The position numbers and the translations under genes are program-made. Below are positions 12,279 to 61,278 of a stretch of 64,000 bases of DNA, one piece after another. A model generated the notes under the pieces. It did not search any database. It had not been told where the DNA came from and saw only the letters and a list, made by a program, of their open reading frames with translations. Source of the stretch: a phage. The stretch is taken from assembly GCA_026066175.1 (NCBI GenBank), contig GCA_026066175.1_4721.1. One strand, 5' to 3'. The stretch's first letter is position 1, and every line of letters begins with the position of its first letter.

Positions 12279-13409
12279 TTATTTGGCTTCATTAAAATAA
12301 ATATCAACGGCACGTTCCGTTGCGTAGAGAAGACCCAGATTCACGGTCCCTACCACTTCCGGTGAACCGATGATACGGTTAGCGATACTGGTGCCACTGA
12401 AGATAGCATCAAGGGTGTGCCCGTCTTCGGTTTTGTTCACACCATGACCCACGGAAGAGACAACGGATTTCGCCTGTGCGGCGAAGGTACCTTTATCCCC
12501 CATTCCCGCACCAAGGTCGTAACGCATGAAAATACGGATCGCGATCTGGTTCTCACCTAACGGATTACCGTCTATTCTCACGTTACTGTTATTGATGCGT
12601 CCCGTTGTTGCTTCGTTGAGTTTCAGTTCCTTAACACGTTTAGCTCGCGCCTTATCAGCGTCACCCACAAGTGCTGCCATGGTTTCGCTCATGTCTTCAA
12701 TCTGAGCGCGGTACAACACATCGATCTGTACGACTTCACCATGCACGTCAGCGCGTGGGTTATACTGACTCATACGGCGTAACGCTTCAACCGCTTCCTG
12801 ACTTTCATCGCTCAGATCGGTTGCAATAGGTTCTTCCAGTGTTGCCAGGATCGTCCGAGGTTCAACATGATCGCCGATTTTCACCAAACCACGAATGTTG
12901 AGATGAGCGTCAACAATGAGCGTACGGCTCTTAATCGATGGGGTTACGAGACGATCGGCAAGATTGTCGAAGATATACGAACTGTCCTCGTGCGTTTCTG
13001 GAATATCCAGAATACCAACCAGAGACAACACGCCTGCGCGCCAAACAACCTGACCTGGGTTCCACCAATCCCGTTTAAAATAAAGACGATGGAAAACCAC
13101 TACATCCTGGTCCTTAACGCGATCCCCGACTTTATAATCGGTAATGAGATCGTGAGGATAATACTTACCTGGTCCTTTCCCGATTATCGTACCGAGTTGG
13201 AAAACCTCTTCCCCTAATTCTGGATCGTCGTATTGTATCGTAAGCGCTGTTTTGGTGACCTTCTTCACAACACCATCGCCTTGAGCAGCTGCTGCGAAGA
13301 GTTTACCAACACGATGCGCGATAACAGTCTCGCCACCAGTGCGCCATGGTTGTACGTCGTAACCTTCAGCGGCTATCATGCGGTTGTGTTGGATGCCTAT
13401 AAACACCAA
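12279..13409 (-). CDS. multisubunit RNA polymerase beta-like subunit, central fragment (possible downstream exon)
   Basis: By-eye alignment to bacterial RpoB: FIGIQHNRMIAA resembles the conserved ANRALMG segment; IRIFMRYDLGAGMGDKGTFAAQAKSVV resembles [26 protein letters not shown]. Track start is TTG with no SD and the frame is open for 8 codons upstream, consistent with an exon. Not database-verified. Confidence 0.5.
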   Translation of the reverse strand: MVFIGIQHNRMIAAEGYDVQPWRTGGETVIAHRVGKLFAAAAQGDGVVKKVTKTALTIQYDDPELGEEVFQLGTIIGKGPGKYYPHDLITDYKVGDRVKDQDVVVFHRLYFKRDWWNPGQVVWRAGVLSLVGILDIPETHEDSSYIFDNLADRLVTPSIKSRTLIVDAHLNIRGLVKIGDHVEPRTILATLEEPIATDLSDESQEAVEALRRMSQYNPRADVHGEVVQIDVLYRAQIEDMSETMAALVGDADKARAKRVKELKLNEATTGRINNSNVRIDGNPLGENQIAIRIFMRYDLGAGMGDKGTFAAQAKSVVSSVGHGVNKTEDGHTLDAIFSGTSIANRIIGSPEVVGTVNLGLLYATERAVDIYFNEAK

Positions 13410-13733: not shown

Positions 13734-14945
13734 TTAGGCGATTGGCTGCGGATTACCCTTGGCCTGCGGACCACGAACTTTTGTCGCGGTCAACTCTTCA
13801 TTTTTAAAGCCTGCTTCACGAGCAATACGTCTCGCTTCTCGCACGTCTAACGTTTCCGTTTCCGCTTTGGCTGAAGGCAGCATTGGGCGTCCCCGCAATT
13901 CAATGAATCTCGTCCATACGTCACCGTATAAACGGACCCGCTCTTTGTAAACAGAATAGTAGATATAACGTTTTCCGTCAGGAAATTTAGTCATTCCATC
14001 CGACTTTAAACGGTAATTGAGTAACGTAGTAGATATACCCATTTCTTCAGCGCAATCGACGGCCGAAAGGTACAACAGAGGTACATCATTTTCAGGAATG
14101 ACGACAATAGCACGTTTGTTGGTTGTCTTCTCCAACTCCAGGATACTATCTTCGACTTCTCGCCATGGCGTCTCATCAGTAACCCACTTAACTTGATAAC
14201 AACCATTAACGACAGGTTGGTTCTTGTCGTTAACGTACATCGACGCAGTGGATAACTTAACACCAATGTGATTCGCGAATTCAGTCAATGATTCGAAAAG
14301 ATGAATCTCTTTTGTTATCGTTGACCTTGCAATCACACCCTTACTTCCCGTATCCGTCAACGTTGCTAACTCGTATTTGGTGGGAATACGCCATGGTTCA
14401 TCGCCGTAATCTTTGCGGTACTGCTTACGTTCAGGAAACGCTCGCTGTTTGCCTCTATAGACACGATGATGAATGAAGTCGATATTCACACCAAGATCGC
14501 GTGCCGCTTCCGTCATGGATGGATATCTGGTTACAACACCGGTATCAACATCACGAACCTGAATAGGTTTACCGTAGGCAGCAATTGAACGTTTACGCAT
14601 GTTCATAATGCGAGCATGCTGATTGTTCTCTTTCTGCGTAACCCATTCAAGATTGTCATTCTCGGCGTTACCGTCGGGATCAAGGTAGTTATTAAGTCTG
14701 TTGCCGTCCTTGTGGTTCACATGGAGCAAATGCGCATCATCGATGTTACGGAACGTTAACATTAGAAGCCTGTGCATGGAACGGTAAACCAATGTTCCAT
14801 CGTGACCTCGAAACGAATAACGATAATACCCAGCAATGATGGTGGGCAAATATTCAAACTTCGATTCCTTGTTACGCAATGTTCCATCTATGGATATCTC
14901 CAGGAACGGGAATTCCGGTACGGTCTTAAATACCTTCTCACTCAT
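13734..14945 (-). CDS. HNH homing endonuclease with NUMOD-like DNA-binding repeats
   Basis: HVNHKDGNRLNN...NLEWVTQKENNQHA HNH motif near the N-terminus; three helix-turn-helix-like repeats (TEAARDLGV, TEFANHIGV, VDCAEEMGI). AAGAGGAA SD before the ATG and a TATATTAC-type motif ~45 nt upstream. Confidence 0.8.
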   Translation of the reverse strand: MSEKVFKTVPEFPFLEISIDGTLRNKESKFEYLPTIIAGYYRYSFRGHDGTLVYRSMHRLLMLTFRNIDDAHLLHVNHKDGNRLNNYLDPDGNAENDNLEWVTQKENNQHARIMNMRKRSIAAYGKPIQVRDVDTGVVTRYPSMTEAARDLGVNIDFIHHRVYRGKQRAFPERKQYRKDYGDEPWRIPTKYELATLTDTGSKGVIARSTITKEIHLFESLTEFANHIGVKLSTASMYVNDKNQPVVNGCYQVKWVTDETPWREVEDSILELEKTTNKRAIVVIPENDVPLLYLSAVDCAEEMGISTTLLNYRLKSDGMTKFPDGKRYIYYSVYKERVRLYGDVWTRFIELRGRPMLPSAKAETETLDVREARRIAREAGFKNEELTATKVRGPQAKGNPQPIA

Positions 14946-15020: not shown

Positions 15021-18000
15021 TTAATCATCTCTATCAGCAGCAGGTACTGCAAGTGCTGATGTACTCATTATTGACGAGCTACCATCCGTTTTCTCGTCGT
15101 AGGGTTTCGTTTCACCGTATACAGACACAATGTTTGCGTTAGGTGCGAGGTAAGCAGAAATACCTACGTCCCCACTATCCTTCGTACCTTCGGATACAAC
15201 ACCAATGTCCGACTTGTCGTACTCACGATCGCGTGCGCGTCGAAGCGATGTTTTCGAACGACCCCCGATACCGGTCATCGTTGCTTCTTCACCCTGCTTG
15301 ATATCCAGCATCGGGTTGGTTTCATCGATGACGATAGAAGCACTGTCGTCAAGGATTTGGTTCCAAACGCTCACCGGACTGATTGAGATCTTCTGTCGGT
15401 TGCCTTGGCTGCTGTTCTCGTTTTGACGAATAGCACCAACCAGATCCTTATACACCAACTCAGCGAACTTATCGTACGTTTTGAAGCGCTGGTAGTTCAC
15501 GTCGTTCGTGTTAGGTGCCCAATCGTCCAGAAGCAGTTCAACCGCACGTAATAACAACATGGCGAAATCAGTCGGTTCGCCCATGTTCTGTAATAACGTA
15601 CGACTTACCGGGTCGACGAAAAGACGCTCCATGAGTTCAAGTTCGCGAAGATGACGAACCTTAAGACCTGCACCATCGACAACGTTAAAATAGATATCCC
15701 GATTGTCGAAAGCACCTCGAGCGTAACCAATGTAGTTACGGTATTCGTTGAATCCGCCTAACAACAATGTCGTCATTCGATCATCTTTACTGAAGATCAA
15801 ACTTTCATCGTCGAAGCTCACCGCGAATTCATCCGATGCTAATCCCATACGAGAACCACGAGGTACCGTACGGTAGTTCGCTTTAAGATGTTCTAATAAC
15901 GGTGTAAGACCACCTAAGTAACTTAACACAACACCAACCGGAATACGTACGCCCATGAACTCAAGGTCAGCGGCTTCGATGGGCATCTTCGCGGCATTGA
16001 TACCGAAGAAATCAGGGAACGTTCCAACCGGCGTTGGGGTTTGATTCGGTTCGTAAACGTATAACTGATTCTGACCATCCACCGCCAGGAATTCGCCGTT
16101 GGTGTTTTTGGCGAACGTTAAGAATCCACCCGCCAGCTGTTCGGTGAATAAATCTTCACCGATGTGTTCCGGCAACGTTTTGATATCGAGGCGTATGTCC
16201 CAATCCGCAAATTGGATTTGGGTGTAGTTACGTGCAAGCACCGCGAAGTAATACGGAACTTTGACAGACGGATCAAAGACGTTACCACGTTTTAAGGTGG
16301 TTAAGGGCGAGGTTTTATCGTAATACATCGCTGTGAGTTGACGTGTTAACCAACGACCAGCATTATTAACCACGCGTTCTGAACGCTTAACGAACACCTT
16401 ACCGTAGGCGGTACTCAACGCAACTTCGGATGACGATACCTTTCTGATTGGTTTATCGACACGTTGTTTACGCATTCGATATTTAATGCCGTTAACGACA
16501 TAAATGCCGTCCTTACGAACCTTCGGTAACATCACCGGGAACGTGGTCGGAACACCGCCTACCGGAGCCAGCTTGATCGTGATGACCTGGTAATCACCCA
16601 TCACGTCAACAACATCTTCAACTTTATATCCGGTAACAGGATAGCCCGCTTGCTGCACCGCCACAACGGCTGCTGCGATGTCCTTTTGCATGACATGTTC
16701 GACGTAGTGTTTATCCCATACGGCAAGCGTCGATTTGCACAAGCTCTTATCAACGATAACGTCCGCTTCCGGCATCACCTTCTCAGGTGCTAATTTCGCG
16801 GCTTTTGGTTTAACCTCAACGTATTCAGCAAGCGTGAGTCCAGAACCGTCAGGTGCTTCAATTTCATGAATCGCGTCAGCGTTACGCATCGCTGCTTTAT
16901 ATTGAACGCCGCTTAATTGACCAGCATCCGCGAGGTCGCTTGCACGTACCAGCACTGCATCGGATAACGACTGAATATATTCACCGTGCGTTTTCGGTAA
17001 CGTTGCCGCATCGAAGACATCAACTTTTTCTTCCGGCATGTCATCGTTGACAACCTCAAAGAGATCATCGGTGATGTCTTGATCTTCGTCCGGTTGAAAA
17101 TCGGGCTGAACTTCAACGCCAGGGACTTCACGAACATCTTCAAACGCACGTTCAACAACCGCGTTCCATGCTTCAGCGTCGTCATCTTCATCCGATCCTC
17201 CGATCAACTCGCTTTCCAGTTCATCGGGGTCAAGAACGGTATCAAGGTCCTCACCGTTAGGAAGCACGACATCACGTTCATCGTACTCCGCATCGGGACT
17301 GTCTGCGAGAATATCACGCTCTTGACGAAGAACCTGCTCCTCTTCTTGTTTCTGTTCTTCTTCATTGGCGCTCTGCGACCACAGACGGGTTACCGCCATC
17401 ATCCAACGACGCTGGAACGTTTCAAGCGTTGTCTTATCAAGTTCCTCGCCTTCCTTCGCTAAACCCGAACGCCATTCTTCCATTAAACCAAGATTCAGAG
17501 TAAAGAAATAGACGCCGTCCGTAAATACAACGTTAAGCTTATCCAGCGAAGCACGGTCCAATGATACCATCGTGCTGTTCTCACGATCGACACCTAACCA
17601 ACGGAAGAAGTCAAAGAACGACAGCTCCTCGGAGGTGGCAAAATTCATGAGGTTATTACGGGTTGGGGCTTGTTGTGTCGTACGCATCAACGATATCTTC
17701 GGTAACGTCGACGGGATACGGAATAACAAGAACTGCTGACGGTCGCTTTGTTGGGCGATCTCGTTTGCTTGCGTCCAAATCGTTTTACGCACGTTGAACC
17801 ATTCATCATACCAACGGGTCAGTGTCGGACGATAGATGTACATGTGGTTAAGATGCGCATAGTTAGCCACGATCTGGGCGTTGATGTTCTTCTCAACCTT
17901 GCTAAGATCGGTGACCAAACGAAAACGACGATGCGATGCACGGTAATCCAGTTTCGCACGCGGTAGCTGGAATCGCTGATCGCGTCGAGGTGCGCCTTGC

Positions 18001-18230
18001 TTGGTTGCAAGATCATCCGCGAATGATATCCAAAGCTGGGCGCTTTCTTTGCTCAGCATGTATTCGTTTTCAGGAGGACCGATTAACGAAGGATCGGTTG
18101 CTGTATAATGATAAACCGCATAACGCGGCAGCTGCAAAAGCTGCACCAAACGCAATCTAGGTGATAATAACTCTTGATAACGTCGTACACCGAATTGTCT
18201 GTAGTAATCAAGGTATTTAAGTTTTGCCAT
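15021..18230 (-). CDS. multisubunit RNA polymerase beta-like subunit, N-terminal fragment (possible upstream exon; ORF tail may be intron-encoded)
   Basis: 1069 aa ORF starting 4 nt after the beta-prime fragment stop. C-terminal RSKTSLRRARDREYDKSDIGVVSEGTKDSGDVGISAYLAPNANIVSVYGETKPYDEKTDG resembles the RpoB segment ...[44 protein letters not shown]. Contains a strongly acidic insertion around 17030-17380. By-eye comparison only. Confidence 0.5.
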   Translation of the reverse strand: MAKLKYLDYYRQFGVRRYQELLSPRLRLVQLLQLPRYAVYHYTATDPSLIGPPENEYMLSKESAQLWISFADDLATKQGAPRRDQRFQLPRAKLDYRASHRRFRLVTDLSKVEKNINAQIVANYAHLNHMYIYRPTLTRWYDEWFNVRKTIWTQANEIAQQSDRQQFLLFRIPSTLPKISLMRTTQQAPTRNNLMNFATSEELSFFDFFRWLGVDRENSTMVSLDRASLDKLNVVFTDGVYFFTLNLGLMEEWRSGLAKEGEELDKTTLETFQRRWMMAVTRLWSQSANEEEQKQEEEQVLRQERDILADSPDAEYDERDVVLPNGEDLDTVLDPDELESELIGGSDEDDDAEAWNAVVERAFEDVREVPGVEVQPDFQPDEDQDITDDLFEVVNDDMPEEKVDVFDAATLPKTHGEYIQSLSDAVLVRASDLADAGQLSGVQYKAAMRNADAIHEIEAPDGSGLTLAEYVEVKPKAAKLAPEKVMPEADVIVDKSLCKSTLAVWDKHYVEHVMQKDIAAAVVAVQQAGYPVTGYKVEDVVDVMGDYQVITIKLAPVGGVPTTFPVMLPKVRKDGIYVVNGIKYRMRKQRVDKPIRKVSSSEVALSTAYGKVFVKRSERVVNNAGRWLTRQLTAMYYDKTSPLTTLKRGNVFDPSVKVPYYFAVLARNYTQIQFADWDIRLDIKTLPEHIGEDLFTEQLAGGFLTFAKNTNGEFLAVDGQNQLYVYEPNQTPTPVGTFPDFFGINAAKMPIEAADLEFMGVRIPVGVVLSYLGGLTPLLEHLKANYRTVPRGSRMGLASDEFAVSFDDESLIFSKDDRMTTLLLGGFNEYRNYIGYARGAFDNRDIYFNVVDGAGLKVRHLRELELMERLFVDPVSRTLLQNMGEPTDFAMLLLRAVELLLDDWAPNTNDVNYQRFKTYDKFAELVYKDLVGAIRQNENSSQGNRQKISISPVSVWNQILDDSASIVIDETNPMLDIKQGEEATMTGIGGRSKTSLRRARDREYDKSDIGVVSEGTKDSGDVGISAYLAPNANIVSVYGETKPYDEKTDGSSSIMSTSALAVPAADRDD

Positions 18231-30039: not shown

Positions 30040-30121
30040 CACGTCCTCCTGAAAAAGAAAAAAGAAATACGGCATAAAGCCTACCCACACAATGGTGGGT
30101 AGGCTAAGATCAACATCGATG

Positions 30122-31236: not shown

Positions 31237-31249
31237 GGTAATATAGTCC
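31237..31249 (-). promoter_or_regulatory. candidate early promoter motif (GGACTATATTACC on the transcribed strand)
   Basis: Plus-strand GGTAATATAGTCC, ~90 nt upstream of the minus-strand start at 31146, in a divergent intergenic region. Confidence 0.4.
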
Positions 31250-41775: not shown

Positions 41776-41781
41776 CATATT

Positions 41782-41813
41782 CCCTCCTCCTTCCCTTACG
41801 GGTTGGAGGAGGG
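41782..41813. terminator. GC-rich hairpin (CCCTCCTCC-TTCCCTTACGGGTT-GGAGGAGGG) followed by A16
   Basis: Perfect 9-bp arms; the inner loop can itself form CCC/GGG around a UUAC (GUAA on the opposite strand) tetraloop; between convergent genes. Confidence 0.6.
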
Positions 41814-41888
41814 CTATGCCGTAAAGCAAAAAAAAAAAAAAAATGATAGTCACGAGCCCTCCAATGAAGGAGAGCCGTGACCGTCAGT

Positions 41889-44345: not shown

Positions 44346-44357
44346 AGTAATATAGCC
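44346..44357 (-). promoter_or_regulatory. candidate early promoter motif (GGCTATATTACT on the transcribed strand)
   Basis: Plus-strand TAAGTAATATAGCCGTGAAA, ~30 nt upstream of the start at 44315; the same 20-mer recurs at 59607-59626. Confidence 0.45.
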
Positions 44358-45292: not shown

Positions 45293-45320
45293 AAGCCTGT
45301 CCTTCGGGGCAGGCTTTTAT
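45293..45320 (+). terminator. intrinsic terminator (AAGCCTGTCC-TTCG-GGGCAGGCTT + TTTT)
   Basis: Classic stem-loop plus T-tract 5 nt after the stop of 44466..45287. Confidence 0.65.
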
Positions 45321-45934: not shown

Positions 45935-45966
45935 CATCCTCCCAACCCGTAAGGGAAGGGAGGATG
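45935..45966. terminator. GC-rich hairpin (CATCCTCCC-AACCCGTAAGGGAA-GGGAGGATG)
   Basis: 9-bp arms; the loop is the reverse complement of the loop at 41791-41804; between convergent genes. Confidence 0.55.
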
Positions 45967-51806: not shown

Positions 51807-52895
51807 ATGGGTGATCAGGCAACGGATAACCGTACAAAAGGGAGCCAACTCGCTCCGGATAACAACGTCAGCGTTTTTCGTATTTTTGCCTTGGGTACTG
51901 TAGCAGCTGACTTTTCCAACAAAAGCCTGGAAGAAGACCCTAATCAAACGCTGGAAGTCTTTCTCGATGAAATGATGTCAGGCGCTGACGGGAAAGTTGA
52001 AGCAGCTGGAAGCGTTAAGGAAGTGAGTGCGACAGACGCACAAGGAAACAGCTATACAGCAAAGGCTGCAACAACAACCAGCGTACAATGTTACTGGTTA
52101 CCATTCGGAAGCAACCGCATGACCGCACCTAACTTAAGGAAAGGTCAACGTGTGGTGGTTTGGCGTACCGCGGATGAAGAACAGCTTTATTGGCAGCCTA
52201 AAGGGGGCGATAGTGAGCTGATGACCATGGAATCGGTGATTCTTACCGTGAGCGCACGTCCGAGCGCGAAGAAAGATCGTAAGTCGATTTCCACCGAAGA
52301 CTGTTACTACCTCATGGTCGACACGTTCCTCAAGAAAGCCGTTATCGGCACCAGCGCCCAGCTTGGTGAAGTCACGCAGGTATACATGGAACTGAACTTG
52401 GATGAAGGCTATCTACAGGTGGCGGATAGCGTTCATCAAAACCTGTTGTTGCTGCATTTCGTTGAACACATGCTGCGTTATCAAAACCAAGATGACAGCA
52501 TCATTGATGTAACGAAGAAAAACATCACGTTCCAATGCGAAGACACACTCAAAGTTATCGCTAAGAACGATATCCGGATGAAAGCGAAAAACATCTATAC
52601 GGAATGCGAGAATTTCGAACGGACAAGCAAGACAGAGAAAGTAACCAGTCAGAACGTTTCATTGAAGTGTGAACGCTATACCGCACAGGTCTCTGGACAA
52701 ACCACGTTCAAATGTCCGAAAACGGTATTCACTGGTGCGGTAAGCTTCACCGGTGAAGACGGCAACACCATGACGTTGAATGGAAACTTCGTGCATGTAG
52801 CGGGGTCTTGGCGTTCACCATCAGGAACCAACGTCTACACGCACGATCATGGTGGCGTAGAACGTGGTGGTGGTAAAACAGATCCGTTCCATTAA
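51807..52895 (+). CDS. putative tail spike / cell-puncturing protein (beta-helix-like repeats, C-terminal HDH motif)
   Basis: C-terminal third has repetitive short beta-strand-like segments (KNITFQCEDTLKVIAKNDIRMKAKNIYTECENFERTSKTEKVTSQNVSLKCERYTAQVSGQTTFKCPKTVFTGAVSFTG) ending in YTHDHGG, reminiscent of gp5/gpV-type spikes with metal-binding His; pattern-based only. Confidence 0.35.
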   Translation: MGDQATDNRTKGSQLAPDNNVSVFRIFALGTVAADFSNKSLEEDPNQTLEVFLDEMMSGADGKVEAAGSVKEVSATDAQGNSYTAKAATTTSVQCYWLPFGSNRMTAPNLRKGQRVVVWRTADEEQLYWQPKGGDSELMTMESVILTVSARPSAKKDRKSISTEDCYYLMVDTFLKKAVIGTSAQLGEVTQVYMELNLDEGYLQVADSVHQNLLLLHFVEHMLRYQNQDDSIIDVTKKNITFQCEDTLKVIAKNDIRMKAKNIYTECENFERTSKTEKVTSQNVSLKCERYTAQVSGQTTFKCPKTVFTGAVSFTGEDGNTMTLNGNFVHVAGSWRSPSGTNVYTHDHGGVERGGGKTDPFH

Positions 52896-52919
52896 TCAAA
52901 AAAAAAAAACAATGTTGTT

Positions 52920-52957
52920 ATCCTCCTTCCCTAGCCATCAGGCCGGGGAAGGAGGAT
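52920..52957. terminator. GC-rich hairpin, same arms as 5375-5412 with reverse-complemented loop
   Basis: ATCCTCCTTCCC-TAGCCATCAGGCCG-GGGAAGGAGGAT preceded by A12 and followed by TTATGGTTTATTTA, the same flank as the 5375 copy. Confidence 0.6.
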
Positions 52958-52970
52958 TATGGTTTATTTA

Positions 52971-53360
52971 TTAACGGATTGCGTTTTGGATGATTTCTTT
53001 TCCGATCGTAATCAAAGCAGGTATCTGTACTGCGGTTGCACCTTGATGACGAAACGCGGTCGCTAACGCGGTATCGATGCTCACAGCACGTCCGTGAAGA
53101 CGATCGAAATAGACTTGAGTGATAGCAGCGGCATACTCTTTTCGCTGTTTCTTGGTTTGGTTTACCATCGTCGCACTACTACCGACGATGAAATAAGCGA
53201 TTAAGAAGAATGCGGCTGACCGTGAGCCGGGTAGAAAGCCTTGGCGTTTAGGAAGCATTTCACAATCACGAACAGTAATACTGTTCGTGAGCTTTTCCAT
53301 GTCGACATGGCATAATTTTGCATAGGTGTGAAGATGATGGGTAAAAGTAGAATTTAACAT
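52971..53360 (-). CDS. hypothetical protein with one hydrophobic helix
   Basis: 129 aa ORF with GAGGAAAGAA SD; last gene of the minus-strand operon that starts at 59523. Confidence 0.55.
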   Translation of the reverse strand: MLNSTFTHHLHTYAKLCHVDMEKLTNSITVRDCEMLPKRQGFLPGSRSAAFFLIAYFIVGSSATMVNQTKKQRKEYAAAITQVYFDRLHGRAVSIDTALATAFRHQGATAVQIPALITIGKEIIQNAIR

Positions 53361-53464
53361 TTCTTTCCTCGGTTACAATGAGTTCAATGTATGGCGTAAA
53401 CGTCACAGAACGACGTATAACAGTTTGTTTTGATTTCTAAGGTGTTTCCCTATCTAAGAGTGAA

Positions 53465-53827
53465 TTAAAGCGTTCTGAAGAGTTCTGTGGCGTTCTCAGC
53501 ATGTAAACATGCTTCGTTCAACAACTCCGCTAACAACTTCGATCTAACTTCAACGAATGTCCTGGTACGATGCTCCCAGTCTAAACGGATGGTGTAAGTA
53601 TCATCCATGTTTCTGTGGTCAACAACAGATGTTGAACAACGTGTTTCTTGTTTATTCACAGCACTCCAGACATCACGGATAATCTTCATGCCTTTCTTGG
53701 TGCACGTAAACGTCAAGATACAACGATTATTCGCTGCTTCTTCACAAACGTGAATAAATTCGCTTCGTAGCGATGAGGTCTTGGTCAATCGATCGATAGC
53801 AAGCGATAACCCAATACGTTGTTGCAT
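53465..53827 (-). CDS. small paralog family A protein (120 aa), unknown function
   Basis: Shares LTFTCTKKGMKIIRDVW with FTFVCTALGKTLLEAAFW (53829..54242) and LGFVFSQTGKDVLENIFW (54258..54701). Confidence 0.55.
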   Translation of the reverse strand: MQQRIGLSLAIDRLTKTSSLRSEFIHVCEEAANNRCILTFTCTKKGMKIIRDVWSAVNKQETRCSTSVVDHRNMDDTYTIRLDWEHRTRTFVEVRSKLLAELLNEACLHAENATELFRTL

Positions 53828-53828
53828 A

Positions 53829-54242
53829 TCAAATTCCTTCTTTCAAAATCTCATTAAGGCCGTCTGCAACCGCGTCCAAATGGGCATCCATATCCGTTAC
53901 GGTGCCAGCGGTAACTGTCCAGACGTGCCGTATTAATGTCTCACCATTCGTACATTTTACCATTTCCATCGCCAACTTTGTTTGTCCTGACGATGGTGAG
54001 ATCTCATTGCTCCGCCAAAACGCAGCCTCGAGTAATGTTTTACCTAACGCTGTACACACAAAAGTAAATTCTACTTGACCAATACCTACCACCGAAGCGG
54101 ATAACGGTTGGATATGTTCGCGCAGCTTATCATCTTCACGTAGGAGCAGCAGTGTACGATGTAAGTGTGTACGGTGGGTAACAATAGCGTCGTAATGACC
54201 GATGCGTACATCGGCTACTGATTCAGGCCAGTTAATTTTCAT
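53829..54242 (-). CDS. small paralog family A protein (137 aa), unknown function
   Basis: See shared motif F-x-F-x-x-T-x-x-GK-x-[LI]-[LI]-x-x-x-[FV]-W; starts 2 nt after the upstream gene. Confidence 0.55.
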   Translation of the reverse strand: MKINWPESVADVRIGHYDAIVTHRTHLHRTLLLLREDDKLREHIQPLSASVVGIGQVEFTFVCTALGKTLLEAAFWRSNEISPSSGQTKLAMEMVKCTNGETLIRHVWTVTAGTVTDMDAHLDAVADGLNEILKEGI

Positions 54243-54257
54243 GTTCGATTCCTCGTA

Positions 54258-54701
54258 TTAACACTGTGTTCCATTCGATAAGCGGGTGGTATCAAAACGA
54301 TCCAGTTGGTGTACAATGCTATTAGCAACACGATGCAAATAGTGTATTTTGTCCATTCGTGAAATCGCAGAAATCGTCCAGCAAGCCTCTGACGTCCAAT
54401 AGGTGCCGTCTTCACTAAGGCTAACGTTATAAACTAACTTCGTCATCACATTTCTCGCCTTATGCTCAGCAGACCAGAATATGTTTTCTAACACATCCTT
54501 CCCCGTTTGTGAAAACACGAACCCAAGCTTCACGTCGAAGTCGGATGCTTCAAGATTAACAAAGTGAAGATGATTCTCCAAAGGCGCAAAAGAGGCTAAA
54601 CGTTCCAGCGCGTTTTGCAGCGTGGGATGATCGAGCTTTTCGAGATCATCCACAGGTTGTTCAGGTACAATCGCGATCGATTTACAGAATTTAATTTCCA
54701 T
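54258..54701 (-). CDS. small paralog family A protein (147 aa), unknown function
   Basis: Shared motif as above. Confidence 0.55.
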   Translation of the reverse strand: MEIKFCKSIAIVPEQPVDDLEKLDHPTLQNALERLASFAPLENHLHFVNLEASDFDVKLGFVFSQTGKDVLENIFWSAEHKARNVMTKLVYNVSLSEDGTYWTSEACWTISAISRMDKIHYLHRVANSIVHQLDRFDTTRLSNGTQC

Positions 54702-54731
54702 GGTAGGTTCCTCTTGATAGATGGTAGTAAC

Positions 54732-54751
54732 GGGGATACCGCGGTATCCCC
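54732..54751. promoter_or_regulatory. perfect 20-bp palindrome GGGGATACCGCGGTATCCCC within the operon
   Basis: Read directly; in the 57-nt gap between 54759..55229 and 54258..54701. Confidence 0.4.
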
Positions 54752-54758
54752 TAAGTCT

Positions 54759-55229
54759 TTATAACACGCCCCAAGCCATATTGGGTACAGGCTCGTTACG
54801 TTCGATGTAATACATCAAGCGTTCTTTAAGTTTGGTTAACGCCTCAGCAACGATGTTCTCCATGGCAATCACCTTTCCAATGTAATCCATGGTATCCTGC
54901 CACGTAAACCATTCGACGGTATTGACGATGTAAAGGGTTTCATCGTCGTCGGTCATGACCTTGGCATTTTCACGATGATCGCGGGTCGCGTATAACGGTG
55001 TTTTTAGATTCGCTCTGATACGTACCCAGAGCTTCTCCAGGAAATCGCTCGGTTGACTATCTGTCGTGATGATAAGTTCACTCCGTACTGAACGCTCTCC
55101 ACGCTTTTCAATAACAAGTAAACCATCGTAAGTGATGTTCATCAAGTTACGAAGGTCATCATTGCTATTCCAGTCTTTTACAACAGCAGGAAGTTGGCTA
55201 TTGTACTCTTCAGGTAATCTCTTAAGCAT
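54759..55229 (-). CDS. hypothetical protein
   Basis: 156 aa ORF; 8-nt overlap with the upstream gene. Confidence 0.55.
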   Translation of the reverse strand: MLKRLPEEYNSQLPAVVKDWNSNDDLRNLMNITYDGLLVIEKRGERSVRSELIITTDSQPSDFLEKLWVRIRANLKTPLYATRDHRENAKVMTDDDETLYIVNTVEWFTWQDTMDYIGKVIAMENIVAEALTKLKERLMYYIERNEPVPNMAWGVL

Positions 55230-55674
55230 CGGTTTCTGCTCCTATATCACGTTTGAGTTCGGCGACCAGTTTGTCGTAATGGTCTTTTATCACATTCGCC
55301 ATAACGAATTGCGCTTTTCTCACTAGCTGCTCATTGGCATCACTGAATGTAAAATACTCTCGCACTTCAACCGGATGTGATACGCCACCGATATCGTAGG
55401 CTTTATTCGATGTGCGTTGAGCGATCACTGGGAGCGGTTTCGCGGCGTTCAGCGCAGTACAGATTTCCGTAACGAGTTCTTGAATTTGGCTTTTCCCTTC
55501 GATGATAACGCTGCAACGATAAACATCCACCTCGTTAAGTTGTTCAACAACATCCGCCTTGATTTTGAATTGACCTACAAGCGCGCTTACTAAAGTGCGG
55601 TGCCAATTGTTCACCACTCCAACCAGCAATGGATGATTCTCAAGATCTCTTCTGTTCATTTCTGAGCTCCTCAA
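55222..55674 (-). CDS. hypothetical protein
   Basis: 150 aa ORF. Confidence 0.55.
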   Translation of the reverse strand: MRSSEMNRRDLENHPLLVGVVNNWHRTLVSALVGQFKIKADVVEQLNEVDVYRCSVIIEGKSQIQELVTEICTALNAAKPLPVIAQRTSNKAYDIGGVSHPVEVREYFTFSDANEQLVRKAQFVMANVIKDHYDKLVAELKRDIGAETDA

Positions 55675-55697
55675 TCGCTCTATAACAAACTTTTAGA

Positions 55698-55720
55698 GGA
55701 AGGGAATATGTTTCCCTTCC
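55698..55720. promoter_or_regulatory. hairpin GGAAGGGAA-TATGT-TTCCCTTCC within the operon
   Basis: Perfect 9-bp inverted repeat in the gap between 55739..56014 and 55222..55674. Confidence 0.4.
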
Positions 55721-55738
55721 TTGAGTTAGTTTATTGCG

Positions 55739-56014
55739 TTATACAACTTTTCTGTGCGCGTAGAACACCTTCGTTCCGTTGTTGATCGCCTCAACCACAT
55801 CCAGGGTTAACACAACGGCGTTATCGCTTCGCGACGACGGTGCGTAATACCCTTCACCGTTCTCGGTAATCAGGCGATAACGGACTAAGCCTATACATGG
55901 TTCAACGCGTACCACTCTTTCGAGTTTGTACTTGATGATCTTCGTCAGGCCGATAGTCTCTGATGCGTAGATGGCTTTATAAACTTTGTTCTTTGCTGTC
56001 GTTTTCATCAACAT
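55739..56014 (-). CDS. hypothetical small protein (start uncertain)
   Basis: ORF track 55739..56083 overlaps the 3' end of 55977..56873; trimmed to an internal ATG (MLMKTTAKN...), leaving ~38 nt of overlap; weak SD. Confidence 0.4.
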   Translation of the reverse strand: MLMKTTAKNKVYKAIYASETIGLTKIIKYKLERVVRVEPCIGLVRYRLITENGEGYYAPSSRSDNAVVLTLDVVEAINNGTKVFYAHRKVV

Positions 56015-56873
56015 GGTTTCTGTTTTCCTTGGTTTGTTGTGGTCCCAGGTCAGAGATATCCCAACGGATATAACCAACATCACGGATTCGCTCGGCTATT
56101 TCTTCGAATTGTGAATCACGACTGATAACCGGTAACCATTCCCCTTCTCGGGTTATCTTAACTTCGGCGATCTGTAAGCTCATGTTCCAACGAACGTCAT
56201 AAACCAGCGCGTAACCAAGAGGATGAACAAGCCCATCCTGGTTATACATCTTCAAAAGACCTCTTACGTCTTCGCTGCGCGGTAATTCCGCCATAGCAGG
56301 ACGTACACGTTGAAGTCTCTTTGTGGTATCGTATCCTAGCTCAATATCTTTCCAGCCCGTCATGACGTAAGGAACAACGTTGCGGCGACGGAGTTGATGG
56401 TTGTGAGTGGTTTCTTCGGCGGTAAGGTGTACCCAACCGAGATCGCTGTACGCCACGAACCGCGCTCCTTCTCCATCGAGCACTGTGTGCTCATCTAACG
56501 CTGCTGCAACACCATGGCCTGCGTAATACGGCGGAAGAACGTTCAGCATTTTAATACGGCTTTCTTGACCGGTATGGTCAGGGTCGATATGCGCGTAGTA
56601 ATAATTACGGCTTACCGGACGACCTTCCGCCATACGTCCACGGAAGACAGGGTCCTGCATTCCAAGCGGATGGTAATACGCGAGCTGTTGTTCGTCACCT
56701 TCCCCGATGACCAACAAACGATCTTCACGACTTGGTGTGCTAGGATCTTTCACCGTGATGTAGGTAACAATCACTTTCAGATTGTCTAAAATGTCCTGTG
56801 GAAGTTTCTCTAAATCCCGTGCGTCGTAAATACGATTAACAACAACGTTTGCAATGTGTTTTGGTAAGCTCAT
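55977..56873 (-). CDS. paralog family B protein (298 aa), unknown function
   Basis: Shares blocks with three upstream paralogs: AYYHPLGMQDPVF, GWVHL, VVPYVMTGWKD, KRLQRVRP, GLVHPLGYALVYDVRWN, WLPVIS, GYIRWDISDL. Confidence 0.6.
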   Translation of the reverse strand: MSLPKHIANVVVNRIYDARDLEKLPQDILDNLKVIVTYITVKDPSTPSREDRLLVIGEGDEQQLAYYHPLGMQDPVFRGRMAEGRPVSRNYYYAHIDPDHTGQESRIKMLNVLPPYYAGHGVAAALDEHTVLDGEGARFVAYSDLGWVHLTAEETTHNHQLRRRNVVPYVMTGWKDIELGYDTTKRLQRVRPAMAELPRSEDVRGLLKMYNQDGLVHPLGYALVYDVRWNMSLQIAEVKITREGEWLPVISRDSQFEEIAERIRDVGYIRWDISDLGPQQTKENRNHVDENDSKEQSL

Positions 56874-56953
56874 TTTAGATCTCTCTTTGTTATTGGTAAA
56901 ATAAATAACGGCATAAAGGGGACATAACTGCCCCCGTGTTAAATATCAACTGT

Positions 56954-57796
56954 TCACGCTTTCAGATCTGAAATATCCCAACGTACGTAACCGGTACGCT
57001 CAATGTCGTCAACCAGTTGCTTGGTTTGATTTTCAACACCAACGACAGGCACCCAATTTAAACGCCAGCGCCCACCGACATTAACCTCAACACGCTGCAG
57101 ATCTTCATTCCAACAAACCCCATTCGGTCTCAAAAAGCCCATCGGGTGGACGAAGTCCTCATCGTAATCTTTCAATAGCGCGAGAATATCGCTTCGGCTA
57201 TAAGTCTTCACGCTTGCTAGATGTACGCTTTGTAGCTTATCGCGCAGACCCCAACCATACTCACAATCACGCCATTCAGGCATGACAACCGGCAGTACAT
57301 TCCGATGACGGATGTATTTTGCCGCTTCAGCAATATCAGCTGGAAGATGTATCCAACCTAAATCGCTGTTAGCAATAAAATCAGGACTGTCCATTTCATG
57401 GATGTAATGATCGTAAAGCGTAGCAGCGAGTCCTTCAGCAAGCACGTTTGTTGGAAGGAGGCAGTTGGCGCTTATCTTGAAATCGAATACATCGGCATCA
57501 GGATCCACATACGCGTAAAACCCGCGTGCGAAAGCGCCGCCATGTTCTTTGAAGCAGTACTGGAATACATTGTTTTGCATTCCGATGGGGTGGTAGTAAG
57601 CCAACACACGTTGTTCGCCGTCCGTGATTTCAATGAGCTGATCTTTCGGCTTCGGCCAGGTGATCTTCTCAACACCGCAAACGCTGACGATCTTTCGTAG
57701 ATTCACCTTGATATGTTCCGGGAGATGCCCGATTTCATTTTCATGATAAACACGGGTGATAACGGTATTGATAACCGGCTGTGGTTTAGCTATCAT
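56954..57796 (-). CDS. paralog family B protein (280 aa), unknown function
   Basis: AYYHPIGMQNNVF, GWIHL, VLPVVMPEWRD, DKLQSVH, FVHPMGF, WVPVVG, GYVRWDISDL; GAGGAA SD. Confidence 0.6.
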   Translation of the reverse strand: MIAKPQPVINTVITRVYHENEIGHLPEHIKVNLRKIVSVCGVEKITWPKPKDQLIEITDGEQRVLAYYHPIGMQNNVFQYCFKEHGGAFARGFYAYVDPDADVFDFKISANCLLPTNVLAEGLAATLYDHYIHEMDSPDFIANSDLGWIHLPADIAEAAKYIRHRNVLPVVMPEWRDCEYGWGLRDKLQSVHLASVKTYSRSDILALLKDYDEDFVHPMGFLRPNGVCWNEDLQRVEVNVGGRWRLNWVPVVGVENQTKQLVDDIERTGYVRWDISDLKA

Positions 57797-57836
57797 TTAT
57801 CGTTTCCTCTTCGTTTTGTGGTTATTGATATTCGTA

Positions 57837-58703
57837 TTACGGTTTAAGATCTGCGATGTCCCAGCGGACATAGCCAACACGTTCGATTTCGCGAGCAAGG
57901 TCTTCGTTGTGAACGTCTACCCCAACAACAGGTAACCAGTTCCCATCTTTGCTGATCTTCACATGAACGATGTTTTGCGAAGTGATGAACTGATTAACAT
58001 CGTGCACCAACGCATAGCCTAACGGATGGATAAAGCCTTCAGCGCAGCATGAATCACGAAGAACGCTCAACATGTCGACGGCTGAAGGGCTAACGCAACG
58101 GACAGGGCGTACGCTTTGCAATTTGTCGGATGCCGCTTGGGCAACGCGTGCATCACGCCATCCCGTCAAGTATACCGGTTTTATATCCCGTTTTAGTAGA
58201 TGTTCGATCTGGATCGCTGTGTCATTATGAACATACACGCAGCCCTGTTCGGTTTCGGTGTCGTAGTCACCTTCATTAAACGCGTTTATTCGGGCAGGAT
58301 AAACCTTCTGGTCTATCGTCACGGCAACCCCTTCAGCGAATGTGGTCAACGGAAGAAGACGTTCTAAACACGCGATTGGATAATCCGCTGATGCTCCAGG
58401 ACGAATATGCGCCAGCATTCCCCAACCATCAGGGAATCCATGTCGGTACATGTATTGCTGGAATACCTCATCCTGCATTCCTAACGGGTACCAGCGTGCA
58501 AGCCGCTGCTGCTCACCGTCCTGAATAACAAAAAGCATTTCTTTGCGTTTAGGCCAGCGGTGATGTTCTACGGCCAAGCCCTCAACGATCGGTTTCAAAT
58601 TGGCTTTGATATGCTCAGGAAGTTGATCCACCTCTTCACGACGATAAATACGATCGATGAGGGTAACGTCGATCTTCTGGCCCATCATCTGCATTAAACT
58701 CAT
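57837..58703 (-). CDS. paralog family B protein (~288 aa), unknown function
   Basis: ORF track 57837..58844 trimmed to ATG (MSLMQMM...) with AGGAG SD; ARWYPLGMQDEVF, PVYLTGWRD, DKLQSVRP, FIHPLGYALVHDV, WLPVVG, GYVRWDIADL. Confidence 0.6.
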   Translation of the reverse strand: MSLMQMMGQKIDVTLIDRIYRREEVDQLPEHIKANLKPIVEGLAVEHHRWPKRKEMLFVIQDGEQQRLARWYPLGMQDEVFQQYMYRHGFPDGWGMLAHIRPGASADYPIACLERLLPLTTFAEGVAVTIDQKVYPARINAFNEGDYDTETEQGCVYVHNDTAIQIEHLLKRDIKPVYLTGWRDARVAQAASDKLQSVRPVRCVSPSAVDMLSVLRDSCCAEGFIHPLGYALVHDVNQFITSQNIVHVKISKDGNWLPVVGVDVHNEDLAREIERVGYVRWDIADLKP

Positions 58704-58770
58704 TTTTATTTCTCCTGCTGTTTTACGATGCATCGTTTTGCTCCTGTGGTTCTTTGTTTTCGGTATCGTG

Positions 58771-59523
58771 TTATGCCTGGCGTAGCATGGTAACGTCCCA
58801 TCGTACCAGCTTGCTTCGCTCAAGCATCCCCTGCGCATGCGCAACGCTTAAGTCCGACGGCACCACCACCGGCAACCAACGTTCGTTAAGCACCTTCGCT
58901 TCCAGCCGCTGCTTGCGTTTGTTGTAACGCACCTCGCTAACCCATGCATAACCGAAAGGATGGATAACCCGTAGGTAGTAACGTTTCAGCATGGCAAGAC
59001 GTTGCTGATAAAGCATATCGGAACCTGCGCTGACGAACAAGGCCACCCGTTCCAACCGCCTGGTGTAATACGTTCCAACGGTATGGTTGATCCAACCCGG
59101 AAGCACCAGTTCATCAGGCGTATCCGCCCATGAGGTATCGTGCACCTCACCGCTATACACCGTCCCAGTCACCTGGCCCGATGCGTCCAACAACGACCGT
59201 GGTAAATCATCCGCGGTAGGATACAACCATGCATCATCAAGTCGCTCCCCCGATGCAAGCACGCGTAACCCGCTTGCGCTTACCCGCGATGGATGCTGGC
59301 TCTTATGCGCACGCAATGACACCACAGACAGATCCGTTGGATGAGCAAGACAACACCCCCGCTGACGGAATAACCCAACCGTACCATCCACCCCTTCGAT
59401 CATGCTTCCTTCCAAACCGTCCCACCAGTAGTTTACCTGCACGCATTCTGCTTTCACTGCCTCAGGCAACAGTAAATAGTCACGTTCAATGAACACGGTA
59501 TCAAAAATGATTTTATCGCTCAT
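58771..59523 (-). CDS. paralog family B protein (250 aa), most diverged member
   Basis: VIHPFGYAWVSEVRYN, WLPVVV, LVRWDVTML align with the other three; AAGGAA SD; first gene downstream of the motif at 59608-59622. Confidence 0.55.
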   Translation of the reverse strand: MSDKIIFDTVFIERDYLLLPEAVKAECVQVNYWWDGLEGSMIEGVDGTVGLFRQRGCCLAHPTDLSVVSLRAHKSQHPSRVSASGLRVLASGERLDDAWLYPTADDLPRSLLDASGQVTGTVYSGEVHDTSWADTPDELVLPGWINHTVGTYYTRRLERVALFVSAGSDMLYQQRLAMLKRYYLRVIHPFGYAWVSEVRYNKRKQRLEAKVLNERWLPVVVPSDLSVAHAQGMLERSKLVRWDVTMLRQA

Positions 59524-59607
59524 GGATAAAGTTCCTTGTTTTCACGTTGTTTGATTAACGTACTGATTTCTATTTGACAGAAGACGAACATTGTACGCAT
59601 CTATCAC

Positions 59608-59622
59608 GTAAGTAATATAGCC
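59608..59622 (-). promoter_or_regulatory. candidate early promoter motif (GGCTATATTACTTAC on the transcribed strand)
   Basis: Plus-strand GTAAGTAATATAGCC, ~90 nt upstream of the start at 59523; 20-mer TAAGTAATATAGCCGTGAAA is identical to 44343-44362. Confidence 0.45.
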
Positions 59623-59734
59623 GTGAAAGGATTTGTATTACAGAAAGGATATTTGTTTTCTAAGAAGGGATGGTTACCAGGAAGGAGGTTATCGATAGGT
59701 GTATTTCAAGGAAGGTTTAAGAGGATAGGTATTG

Positions 59735-59905
59735 TTGTTTTGTTTATCTTAGTTTGTCTATGTATTCGTTTAATGTGTTATCTTAGTTTTAATGATCTTT
59801 TCAAAAGTGTTATCATGTTTATCTTAGGTTATATTTTAATTGCTTTAAGTTATTTGTTTTATCTATCTTGTTATCTTGTTTAAGTTGTTAATTGCTTATC
59901 TTCAA
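59735..59905. repeat. cluster of at least 8 direct repeats of TTATCTT(A/G) in an AT-rich noncoding region
   Basis: Copies read at ~59745, 59779, 59805, 59819, 59860, 59865, 59872, 59894; embedded in a ~800 nt region with no credible ORF. Confidence 0.5.
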
Positions 59906-60335
59906 AACAATGGATAACATGTGTTTACTACAACTTCAGTAACACATGTCATCTGTGCATTACACTACGTTACATGCTTATAATCAGATAACTCTAAAAA
60001 ACCATTTGTGATACTCTTCTTCACGTTGTTCATCAGAGTATCTCGTCTACACTTGCTTCGCGCGTATACGACATCACCGTTAACGCTAACGCTACGCTTA
60101 TAGCTTATAACTCTAAGGATAAAAACATAAACTCGCTTCGCTCGTTTAGTTTTTCTTTTTCTTAGAGTTATCCTGTTGCTCGTCTCTAAAGGACTTCGCT
60201 CCTCCCCCGTCCCCCGAAGGGGCCGAGGTCGTGGAAATTTTACTTTCCAAATACATTTACAACGTCTGTAAACTTTTACCGACACATACCTAATCTTATA
60301 TTTAAATATTAGAAAAAGAGAAAATACGAACATAA

Positions 60336-60367
60336 CCCTCCTCCTTCCCTGATGGGTTGGAGGAGGG
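60336..60367. terminator. GC-rich hairpin (CCCTCCTCC-TTCCCTGATGGGTT-GGAGGAGGG)
   Basis: Perfect 9-bp arms, immediately downstream of the stop of minus-strand gene 60385..61278. Confidence 0.55.
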
Positions 60368-60384
60368 GATAACAGTCTATTTAA

Positions 60385-61278
60385 TTAATCGGAAGTGTTA
60401 TAACCGAATACTGCTTTACCGTAGGTGTGAGTACCATCACTTAGTGACAATACCAATACGTGGTTATACGCATCGTTAACACCCTTGTCGGTAGAATCGG
60501 TGGTAACACCGTTGTAGACAAAGGTAGCTGATTGCAGATTGGTTTTCAGTTCATTGATGATATCATCACTTACACCAGTCTGCTCTTTAATCAGAGTAGT
60601 CAGGTTACCTGCTAAGCTTGCGTCGAGATTTACTTCGTTGCCAGTAATAGCTTGTAAACCTGAAGCGTAAGTACTGAAGTCTAACGGATAGGTTAACAGA
60701 CGTGCTGACGTTTTGGTACCATTGCCTTCATCAACGTAGGTTAAGTTACCCAGGTTGGTAACCTTGATGATGTTAGACAGATCCAGCGTTGTGTTATAAA
60801 CTTTAACTTGAACAGAACCATACCAAGCCAACGAATCTTCTTTGGCTTCCAGGGTAACGGTTTGGATACCTGACTGATCAAAGGTAACGGGATTAGATAA
60901 CGTTTCAGCTTTGATGTCTTTTGTTTTATCCAGGAACTTCTCGCCGGAAGGCGTAACCATACCGTAGCGTTGAGCTACGAGGTCGACCACGTCACCGATG
61001 GTGGTGTTTGCTTCAACACTAACGCGCACCGCGATCTTCTGGAACCATTTAGCCAGATCCAGACGATGATAGGTGACATCGCGGGTATTGAAGTACGGTG
61101 TACCATCACCCGGACTGAGTGTTAATGTTGCTGCACTATCAGAATCGCTTTTGGATTTAAGAACGTATTTGAGATCAGTGTATTTGAAACTGGCTCCCGT
61201 ATCGGCGTTAAGCTGGTTGATCTCATCAACGATAAGTTGCCACGGTGTTTTCAAAGTAAGTGATACTCGACTTGTCAT
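60385..61278 (-). CDS. hypothetical protein; distant paralog of 61420..61962
   Basis: 297 aa ORF with GAGGTAAAAA SD; segment GIQTVTLEAKEDSLAWYGSVQVKV resembles VGQVTLNAIENGLVYTGTLQVAL in the divergent neighbour. Confidence 0.6.
   Translation of the reverse strand: MTSRVSLTLKTPWQLIVDEINQLNADTGASFKYTDLKYVLKSKSDSDSAATLTLSPGDGTPYFNTRDVTYHRLDLAKWFQKIAVRVSVEANTTIGDVVDLVAQRYGMVTPSGEKFLDKTKDIKAETLSNPVTFDQSGIQTVTLEAKEDSLAWYGSVQVKVYNTTLDLSNIIKVTNLGNLTYVDEGNGTKTSARLLTYPLDFSTYASGLQAITGNEVNLDASLAGNLTTLIKEQTGVSDDIINELKTNLQSATFVYNGVTTDSTDKGVNDAYNHVLVLSLSDGTHTYGKAVFGYNTSD

Follow-up and report, generated by a model that had tools for sequence, protein, structure and literature searches.

Tail-less intercistronic hairpins as candidate leaky 3'-end signals in an early operon of a jumbo phage related to Goslar

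Genes, promoter and inverted repeats of the operon

The DNA analyzed here (the window) is a 64-kb stretch that is collinear as a whole with the genome of the Escherichia jumbo phage vB_EcoM_Goslar (Chimalliviridae, nucleus-forming), with few indels. Region 52900-59600 is ~87% identical to Goslar, and by its sequence the window is a relative of this E. coli jumbo phage. All genes of 52971-59523 are carried by the minus strand, encode small products and are partly homologous to Goslar_00014 to 00021. Searches of ten operon proteins against Pfam and PHROGs gave no Pfam match and no informative PHROG match (a 137-aa protein had one marginal PHROG match, E = 7.7e-4), so that the gene context offers no clue to function.

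Two short gaps within this operon each contain a perfect inverted repeat. IR1 (GGGGATACCGCGGTATCCCC, 54732-54751, minus strand) is a perfect 20-nt palindrome in the 57-nt spacer 54702-54758, flanked on its 5' side by a 156-aa gene (54759-55229, a divergent Goslar_00018 homologue) and on its 3' side by a 147-aa gene (54258-54701, a Goslar_00017 homologue without Pfam or PHROG match). It starts 7 nt past the TAA of the former (54761-54759) and leaves 30 nt up to the ATG of the latter (54701), and the spacer also contains a Shine-Dalgarno sequence, AGAGGA, at 54709-54714. As RNA, IR1 consists of an 8-bp stem, GGGGAUAC/GUAUCCCC, with a CGCG tetraloop. IR2 has the core GGAAGGGAA-TATGT-TTCCCTTCC at 55698-55720 and extends to a 10-bp stem (AGGAAGGGAA/UUCCCUUCCU, minus strand) with a 5-nt loop, ACAUA, at 55697-55721. 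It lies in the 79-nt spacer 55660-55738, starting 17 nt past the stop codon (55741-55739) of a 91-aa gene on its 5' side (55739-56014, a Goslar_00019 homologue) and leaving 37 nt up to the start codon (ATG, 55659) of a 145-aa gene on its 3' side (55222-55659), which is present in the relative L006 and missing from Goslar. The IR2 spacer as a whole folds with z = -3.98. An earlier note on this DNA had given the sequences, coordinates and short-gap positions of both repeats exactly, and its remark that they lack a T-tract is borne out by their sense-strand (minus) tails, GTTACTACCATC for IR1 and CTCTAAAAGTTTG for IR2.

The early promoters of phiKZ and 201phi2-1 share a consensus with the core TATATTAC (PMC7058600). 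Five copies of this core occur in the window, every one on the minus strand and within the extended consensus ..cacGGC-TATATTAC-ttaaGTGAtAG. The sole copy of the operon, at 59612-59619 on the minus strand (within ..tttcacggcTATATTACttacgtgatag), is a phiKZ-type motif for an early (virion RNA polymerase) promoter and probably marks the operon start; no copy, exact or with 1 mismatch, is found beside IR1 or IR2. Its position ~90 nt upstream of the operon's first gene and its conservation in relatives (L004, L007, L012 and L014) point to an early unit, which by analogy would be transcribed by the virion polymerase. Phages of this kind are transcribed by their own multisubunit polymerases and not by the host RNAP (PMC7598289).

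Along the operon, the order of signals is a tailed internal terminator, IR2, IR1 and a closing terminator. The closing element (52920-52957) is a bidirectional terminator hairpin in a convergent gap, annotated as a putative terminator in Goslar. The internal one (56906-56935, minus strand) is a canonical phiKZ-type terminator: its hairpin at 56918-56935, GGGGGCA-GUUA-UGUCCCC (GGGGGCAGTTATGTCCCC), is followed by TTTATGCCGTTA. Because of this canonical terminator (hairpin plus TTTATGCCGT), region 52971-59523 is not a clean single unit, and the earlier description of it as one transcription unit was too simple. Internal hairpins follow the first gene or genes in every early-promoter-driven operon of the window.

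Tailed and tail-less hairpins in the window

To place IR1 and IR2 among the hairpins of this DNA, we counted perfect stems with a loop of at most 10 nt over the 64-kb window, with forty dinucleotide shuffles as control. Stems of at least 9 bp numbered 12, against a shuffle mean of 2.15 (maximum 7), and stems of at least 10 bp numbered 9, against a mean of 0.5 (maximum 3). Six of these nine are intergenic, while intergenic DNA makes up 7.2% of the window (binomial P ~1e-5). IR1 and IR2 are thus non-random stem-loops.

We then compared the best hairpin of each intergenic gap together with its downstream tail. The dominant class is long and GC-rich, often of the form CCCTCCTCC..GGAGGAGGG, and is followed within a few nt by (T)TATG, commonly as TTATGCCGT. 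TTAT or TATG occurs within ~8 nt in 20 of 27 hairpin-strand combinations, compared with 8.7% of random 16-mers. About a dozen clear tailed members are present in the window (for example 56918-56935, 60336-60367, 30078-30105 and 45293-45316); they are bidirectional in convergent gaps, where most are tailed on both strands, and are found in many co-directional gaps as well. The motif BCCYCCCCHWWDGGGRRGGBYTTATKYYGT was described in 61 phiKZ terminators (PMC10914365) and again in 201phi2-1 (PMC11512511), and its signature of a GC-rich hairpin followed by (T)TATGCCGT is shared by most intergenic hairpins of the window other than IR1 and IR2.

Stability is kept relative to Goslar in 9 of the 11 hairpins compared (P <= 0.02), the exceptions being IR2 and 19925-19963, a hairpin in the divergent gap 19914-20023 (P = 0.26). 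Leaving aside IR1, IR2 and a hairpin at 26736, the random-mutation test gave P < 0.005 for 7 of 8 hairpins. In addition, G.U wobbles on the sense strand are found in 8002-8030, in 56918-56935 when compared with L006, and in a hairpin upstream of IR1 in some relatives (see below). At 56918, the L006 stem reads GGGGACA, so that L006 has A-U in place of the window's G.U, in keeping with an RNA of the sense strand. Retained stability and sense-strand wobbles together argue for selection on the structure of the transcribed RNA and speak against a DNA site bound by a dimer.

A minority of three hairpins, namely IR1, IR2 and 26736-26756, is without TTAT or TATG within ~8 nt. All three lie in co-directional gaps and have G-rich 5' arms, and the distance from their 3' end to the next Shine-Dalgarno sequence is 8 nt (26736), 17 nt (IR1) and 24 nt (IR2). 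The hairpin at 26736-26756, GGGGUGGGG-AAU-CCCCACCCC, is located between two plus-strand genes on that strand; in Goslar it reads GGGCGGG..CCCGCCC, with a compensatory change from T:A to C:G, and its stability is retained (P ~0.01). Two further candidates for this class, 13507-13533 and 13570-13608, were dropped, as they lie in or adjoin a group I intron.

The phage of the window belongs to the same family (Chimalliviridae) as phiKZ and 201phi2-1, whose terminators are GC-rich sense-strand hairpins in short gaps, often within read-through operons. IR1 and IR2 are likewise GC-rich intergenic hairpins on the transcribed strand of co-directional gaps (57 nt and 79 nt), with folding energies of -13.3 kcal/mol for IR1 and -14.8 kcal/mol for IR2. 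However, both lack the TTAT(G)KYYGT tail, and the phiKZ-type pyrimidine-rich 5' arm (CCYCCCC..GGGRRGG) is replaced by the opposite polarity in IR1 (GGGGAUAC) and IR2 (GGAAGGGAA). They resemble instead the large fraction of mapped phiKZ and 201phi2-1 3' ends without the motif. With rho-independent terminators they share a GC-rich stem-loop just past a stop codon, but not the U-tract on the transcribed strand, and such phages use their own polymerases rather than host RNAP (PMC7598289).

On either strand the stems of IR1 and IR2 pair perfectly by Watson-Crick rules, so that these two hairpins could themselves act on either. They could in principle be plus-strand terminators that stop antisense read-through past 52920-52957 and protect the early operon from antisense RNA. 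A consensus scan for rho-independent terminators, which finds IR1 on neither strand, flags IR2 as terminator-like on the antisense (plus) strand only, where it also folds better (-19.3 versus -14.8 kcal/mol). On that side, both have T-rich tails with TTAT 8-10 nt downstream (TAAGTCTTTATAAC for IR1, TGAGTTAGTTTATTGCG for IR2) that resemble canonical plus-strand tails such as ATAAGGTTTATTTGCCG. These TTAT motifs, however, arise from the sequence around the stop codons of the upstream genes, and the AATAAAC that follows the 91-aa gene is conserved with or without IR2; their offsets of 8-10 nt fall outside the canonical tail range of -2 to +7. Considering also that no plus-strand gene or early promoter is nearby, with all five TATATTAC sites on the minus strand, we regard antisense termination as very improbable.

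Variation of the two hairpins among relatives

Relatives were sought in a phage database (near and distant modes), IMG/VR, metagenome data and a 5.8-billion-protein set with its encoding contigs. The resulting comparison set comprises 13 sequences, the window and 12 related ones including Goslar. Across the databases and metagenome scanned, no relatives more divergent than close Goslar-like genomes were found, and two IR1 alleles occur among these; this diversity is too low for a covariance model.

The IR1 position carries a hairpin in 13 of 13 sequences, as two structural alleles and one loop variant. Allele A, GGGGATAC-CGCG-GTATCCCC, is found in the window, L007, L008 and L011, and in L006 with the loop CGCT, which breaks the center of the DNA palindrome and leaves the stem intact. 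Allele B, GGGGAC-ATCGCC-GTCCCC, is found in Goslar (MK327938, 13016-13033) and seven others. The alleles differ in their sixth pair, T:A in A and C:G in B, and in loop size; GTTACWA follows both. In Goslar, -12 kcal/mol is retained despite 7 edits (P ~0.02 against random mutants with an equal number of changes). The genomes with allele B also have a second hairpin upstream of IR1, the one with sense-strand G.U wobbles mentioned above. Compensatory or wobble pairing, as expected for a conserved structured RNA, is therefore seen in IR1, where it amounts to essentially one allele replacement; in IR2 it is not seen. Judged from these close genomes and this single replacement, IR1 behaves as a selected RNA hairpin of which the structure rather than the sequence is conserved.

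The same comparison bears on the proposal in the earlier note that the repeats are binding sites. IR1 is a perfect 20-bp palindrome, as a site for a dimeric regulator would be. Alternatively, the hairpins could be translational insulators that leave the next ribosome-binding site accessible, considering that a Shine-Dalgarno sequence follows each of the three tail-less hairpins after 8-24 nt and that their 3' arms are C/U-rich and anti-SD-like. Yet the spacing between the half-sites GGGGA and TCCCC is 10 nt in allele A and 8 nt in allele B, and the palindrome center is broken in L006. Neither half-site motif has a second exact copy elsewhere in the 64 kb; for IR1, this means that neither the fixed spacing nor the recurring half-site of a dimeric operator is found within the window. 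The folds, moreover, are without a notable alternative structure that sequesters the Shine-Dalgarno sequence. A hairpin kept with a compensatory pair, a new loop and a new spacing argues for an RNA element and not for a DNA site bound by a dimer, and we consider operator and insulator roles alike to be highly unlikely.

IR2 has a different history. The window and L006 have it intact, L012 has 8 bp of it, and it is degenerate in Goslar, L003, L004, L007, L008, L013, L014 and L015. In Goslar the degenerate form, AGAAGGGAAACTATACCTTAAC, folds with -3 kcal/mol, and its stability is not retained beyond chance (P = 0.69, random-mutation test). In sequence comparison, IR2 is thus a polymorphic and not a fixed feature, and it is dispensable in most relatives. 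Its spacer (55660-55738) is mosaic among relatives, with recombination junctions within and beside the hairpin: L012 combines a Goslar-like left flank and the IR2 hairpin with a Goslar-type downstream gene, and in L013 the left flank resembles the window and the right half Goslar. These mosaics indicate that IR2 is not tied to the extra 145-aa gene. The genes nearby vary between relatives in presence and copy number, which by the same comparisons places IR2 at a recombination-prone boundary among variable gene cassettes.

Such a setting recalls the PeSL (promoter-early stem-loop) cassettes of T4-type phages, in which an early promoter is joined to a stem-loop. The likeness lies in stem-loops that border small, variable early genes in a recombining region, with the mosaic IR2 spacer as an example; the difference is that neither IR1 nor IR2 is accompanied by an early promoter. 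One possibility is that the hairpins, and IR2 especially, are neutral relics, either decayed or nascent terminators or recombination scars between gene cassettes, with no present role. The degenerate IR2 in Goslar and seven relatives (with the P value of 0.69), the junctions of L012 and L013 in or beside the hairpin and the variable neighboring genes are all in line with this, as is the resemblance of the allele-B stem of IR1, GGGGAC..GTCCCC, to the tailed stem at 56918, GGGGGCA..TGTCCCC, as if a tail had been lost. On the other hand, IR1 and 26736 are maintained by compensatory change, a perfect 10-bp stem is unlikely to last unselected, and the promoter that belongs to a PeSL is missing. A relic without function is an unlikely, though not a negligible, explanation.

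The earlier note had also proposed RNA processing sites. The RNase III sites of the early genes of phage T7 (R0.3-R1.3) are irregular duplexes, at least ~20 bp long and interrupted by an internal loop, and E. coli RNase III normally needs about two helical turns, ~20 bp. Like the T7 sites, IR1 and IR2 are intercistronic in a phage early polycistronic mRNA. For IR2, the sequences of the window and L006 also allow an 8-bp lower stem, AAUAAACU/AGUUUGUU, on which the hairpin can stack with an internal loop in between, for 18 bp in total. Their own stems, though, are just 8-10 bp, far below that requirement. The lower stem of IR2 is not conserved in L012 or Goslar and competes with another small hairpin (IR2b), so that the 18-bp composite is interrupted and not conserved; IR1 has no stem extension at all, and no Rfam family matched over 52800-60400 (0 matches at E <= 1). 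Given the short stems and the interrupted, unconserved composite, processing by RNase III is very unlikely.

The competing hairpin, IR2b (55675-55688, minus strand), is a weak 5-bp stem, UUGUU-AUAG-AGCGA, just 5' of the Shine-Dalgarno sequence GAGGAG (55667-55672). It recurs in three spacer types, as UCGUU-GUAG-AACGA in L012 and as ACGCU-UAGAG-AGCGU in Goslar, with changes that pass via sense-strand G.U wobbles. Since its register is off by 1 nt in Goslar, the covariation of IR2b is only suggestive.

Possible roles in transcript 3' ends and expression

We tentatively favor, at somewhat less than an even chance, a reading in which IR1 and IR2 are leaky stem-loops that form RNA 3' ends and grade expression along the operon. 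Both hairpins would fold in the sense-strand polycistronic early mRNA that starts at the TATATTAC promoter (59612-59619), as part of a genome-wide set of intergenic hairpins punctuating the phage operons, minus the (T)TATGCCGT tail. A minority of transcripts would end at the hairpin or be trimmed back to it, and the hairpin would then protect the upstream cistrons against 3'-to-5' exonucleases. Most polymerases would read through, and the combination of partial ends and read-through would lower expression step by step along the operon, while the genes downstream would not be insulated. The suggestion of the earlier note that the repeats are attenuators grading expression is reasonable in this respect, considering that no early operon in the window is without internal hairpins; the function itself is suggested by comparison with other phages.

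The comparison draws on ONT-cappable-seq, by which 133 transcript 3' ends were mapped in phiKZ and 132 in 201phi2-1 (PMC10914365, PMC11512511). Only 61 (phiKZ) and 52 (201phi2-1) of these are canonical or intrinsic, so that over half lack the canonical motif, yet most 3'-end regions fold stably (PMC10914365, PMC11512511). Intercistronic stem-loops and abundant non-canonical 3' ends are already documented in these two phages, and by analogy some of the transcripts would have their 3' ends at IR1 and IR2, with protection of the cistrons upstream. Whether such ends arise from inefficient termination or from exonuclease trimming after read-through cannot be separated by sequence, as both predict the same 3' ends.

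Intercistronic hairpins that stabilize mRNA are well known, as in the REP element between malE and malF of E. coli and in the puf operon of Rhodobacter, where the expected outcome is a graded abundance of cistrons. IR1 and IR2 are like these in being stable hairpins between co-transcribed genes without terminator features. Unlike REP, they are not dispersed repeats and are shorter and weaker than REP pairs. A pure stabilizer would act under full read-through: host RNase E would cut the AU-rich, single-stranded spacer downstream, and the hairpin would block PNPase and RNase II, giving the upstream RNA a longer half-life. The (T)TATG tail is strongly conserved on canonical hairpins, and may be needed for termination, in which case the tail-less ones may not terminate at all. 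This near-universal tail on strong terminators, together with the lack of both tail and U-tract in IR1 and IR2, gives the stabilizer model substantial weight. It also agrees with the AU-rich, unstructured spacers behind IR1 (CUAAAAGUUUGUUAUAG) and IR2 (GUUACUACCAUCUAUCAAG) and with the fate of chimallivirus mRNAs, which are exported from the phage nucleus to the host cytoplasm, where they are translated and degraded (PMC11077065). Against it, an RNase E site is not provable from sequence, the stems are modest (8-10 bp, -13 to -15 kcal/mol), and the predicted 3' ends are the same as those of weak termination. Stabilization alone is accordingly a serious possibility, to which we give a clearly smaller chance than to leaky 3'-end formation.

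The tail itself suggests one more interpretation. The (T)TATG sequence is the same as the phiKZ late-promoter initiator T-3ATG+1, and this identity raises the idea that the tail pauses the polymerase and so converts a hairpin into a terminator. It would be an improbable outcome that the tail is such a polymerase-recognized pause, or that the tail-less GGGG..CCCC hairpins are a separate signal class read by a phage factor for RNA binding, export or decay. Binding by ChmC was rejected as an explanation for the hairpins: its eCLIP peaks, which show no motif, are found 25-30 nt past the start codons (PMC11077065) and not at intergenic hairpins.

Taking leaky 3'-end formation as the preferred reading, IR1 and IR2 are most likely weak signals for transcript ends or attenuation. 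Phage regulatory elements of this kind are ordinary, and the discovery is a modest one. If this reading is correct, mixing tailed terminators with tail-less hairpins would be a way for a nucleus-forming jumbo phage to set how much each gene of an early operon yields relative to the others. The practical value lies mostly in annotation, where transcription architecture can be read from sequence via TATATTAC promoters, tailed terminators and tail-less hairpins. In addition, the contrast between tailed and tail-less hairpins is a clean natural test of the role of the tail for phage polymerases, and if the tail is a pause signal, the tail-less hairpins are natural controls that have the hairpin without the pause.

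Early promoters and an internal terminator

The early operons of the window are defined by five copies of the early-promoter motif, all on the minus strand (7084-7091, 14987-14994, 31238-31245, 44347-44354 and 59612-59619), which share the extended consensus ..cacGGC-TATATTAC-ttaaGTGAtAG, closely matched by the early promoter of phage 201phi2-1. Upstream of the last of these lies an A-rich non-coding stretch with repeated CTAAGATAAAC / AAGATAACA units (59650-59900, minus strand), at whose position the related phage Goslar has a gene-free gap of 854 nt.

The region 52971-59523, supposed to be a single operon, contains an internal canonical phiKZ-type terminator, consisting of a hairpin followed by TTTATGCCGTTA (56906-56935, minus strand) and located between the genes for 280-aa and 298-aa proteins. 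This terminator is followed by an early-promoter core with one mismatch, TATTTTAC, at ~56896-56903. Both flanking genes belong to a minus-strand tandem array of four paralogues (250, ~286, 280 and 298 aa; 55977-59523), the products of which share the C-terminal motif (Y/L)(V/I)RWD(I/V)..L. Copy number and gene type in the array differ among the relatives compared (L004, L006, L007 and Goslar): Goslar carries genes for 260-aa and 99-aa proteins in its place, and the related sequence L004 shows a mixture.

The conserved terminator tail

Window-wide, terminators share the conserved tail (T)TATG, for example at 41780-41814, 28931-28968, 45935-45966 and 60336-60367. The four bases TATG are identical to the phiKZ late-promoter initiator, T-3ATG+1 (PMC7598289); in view of this identity, the tail may conceivably be recognized as a pause signal by the phage polymerase. 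One 38-nt terminator hairpin occurs in two identical copies, 47 kb apart and in opposite orientations (5375-5412 and 52920-52957), both of which are flanked by TATGGTTTATTTA and lie in convergent gaps.

Hairpins derived from or lying within coding sequence

In the related genomes with allele B of the hairpin preceding the 147-aa gene, the gene upstream of the 147-aa gene ends earlier (L002, L003, L004, L005 and L012-L015), and a second strong hairpin, CCCGCCTGTACCC-CATC-GGGTACAGGCGGG, precedes the 147-aa gene by ~60-95 nt. This second hairpin derives from the former C-terminal coding sequence of the upstream gene; its stem is perfect in L003 and contains sense-strand G.U wobbles in the others. 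Separately, two perfect 12-bp hairpins lie within coding sequence of the window (53266-53290 and 22521-22546); the former lacks conservation in Goslar.

Intron and endonuclease insertions

A 1.63-kb minus-strand insertion absent from Goslar (13409-15037) interrupts the homologue of Goslar_00228, leaving two ORFs (15021..18230 and 12279..13409). Within it lie a group I intron (Rfam RF00028, 13536-13959, 51.4 bits, above the gathering score) and a 403-aa HNH/NUMOD/I-TevI-like homing endonuclease ORF (13734..14945), the latter with an early-promoter motif of its own, TATATTAC, ahead of it at 14987-14994. Conversely, ~2.1 kb of Goslar (L009 18755-20838, corresponding to Goslar 211754-213837) is missing from the window at 18413-18454. 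This segment holds Goslar's annotated group I intron and Goslar_00230, so the intron/endonuclease insertions differ between the two phages: each carries distinct insertions in one shared polymerase-gene neighbourhood.
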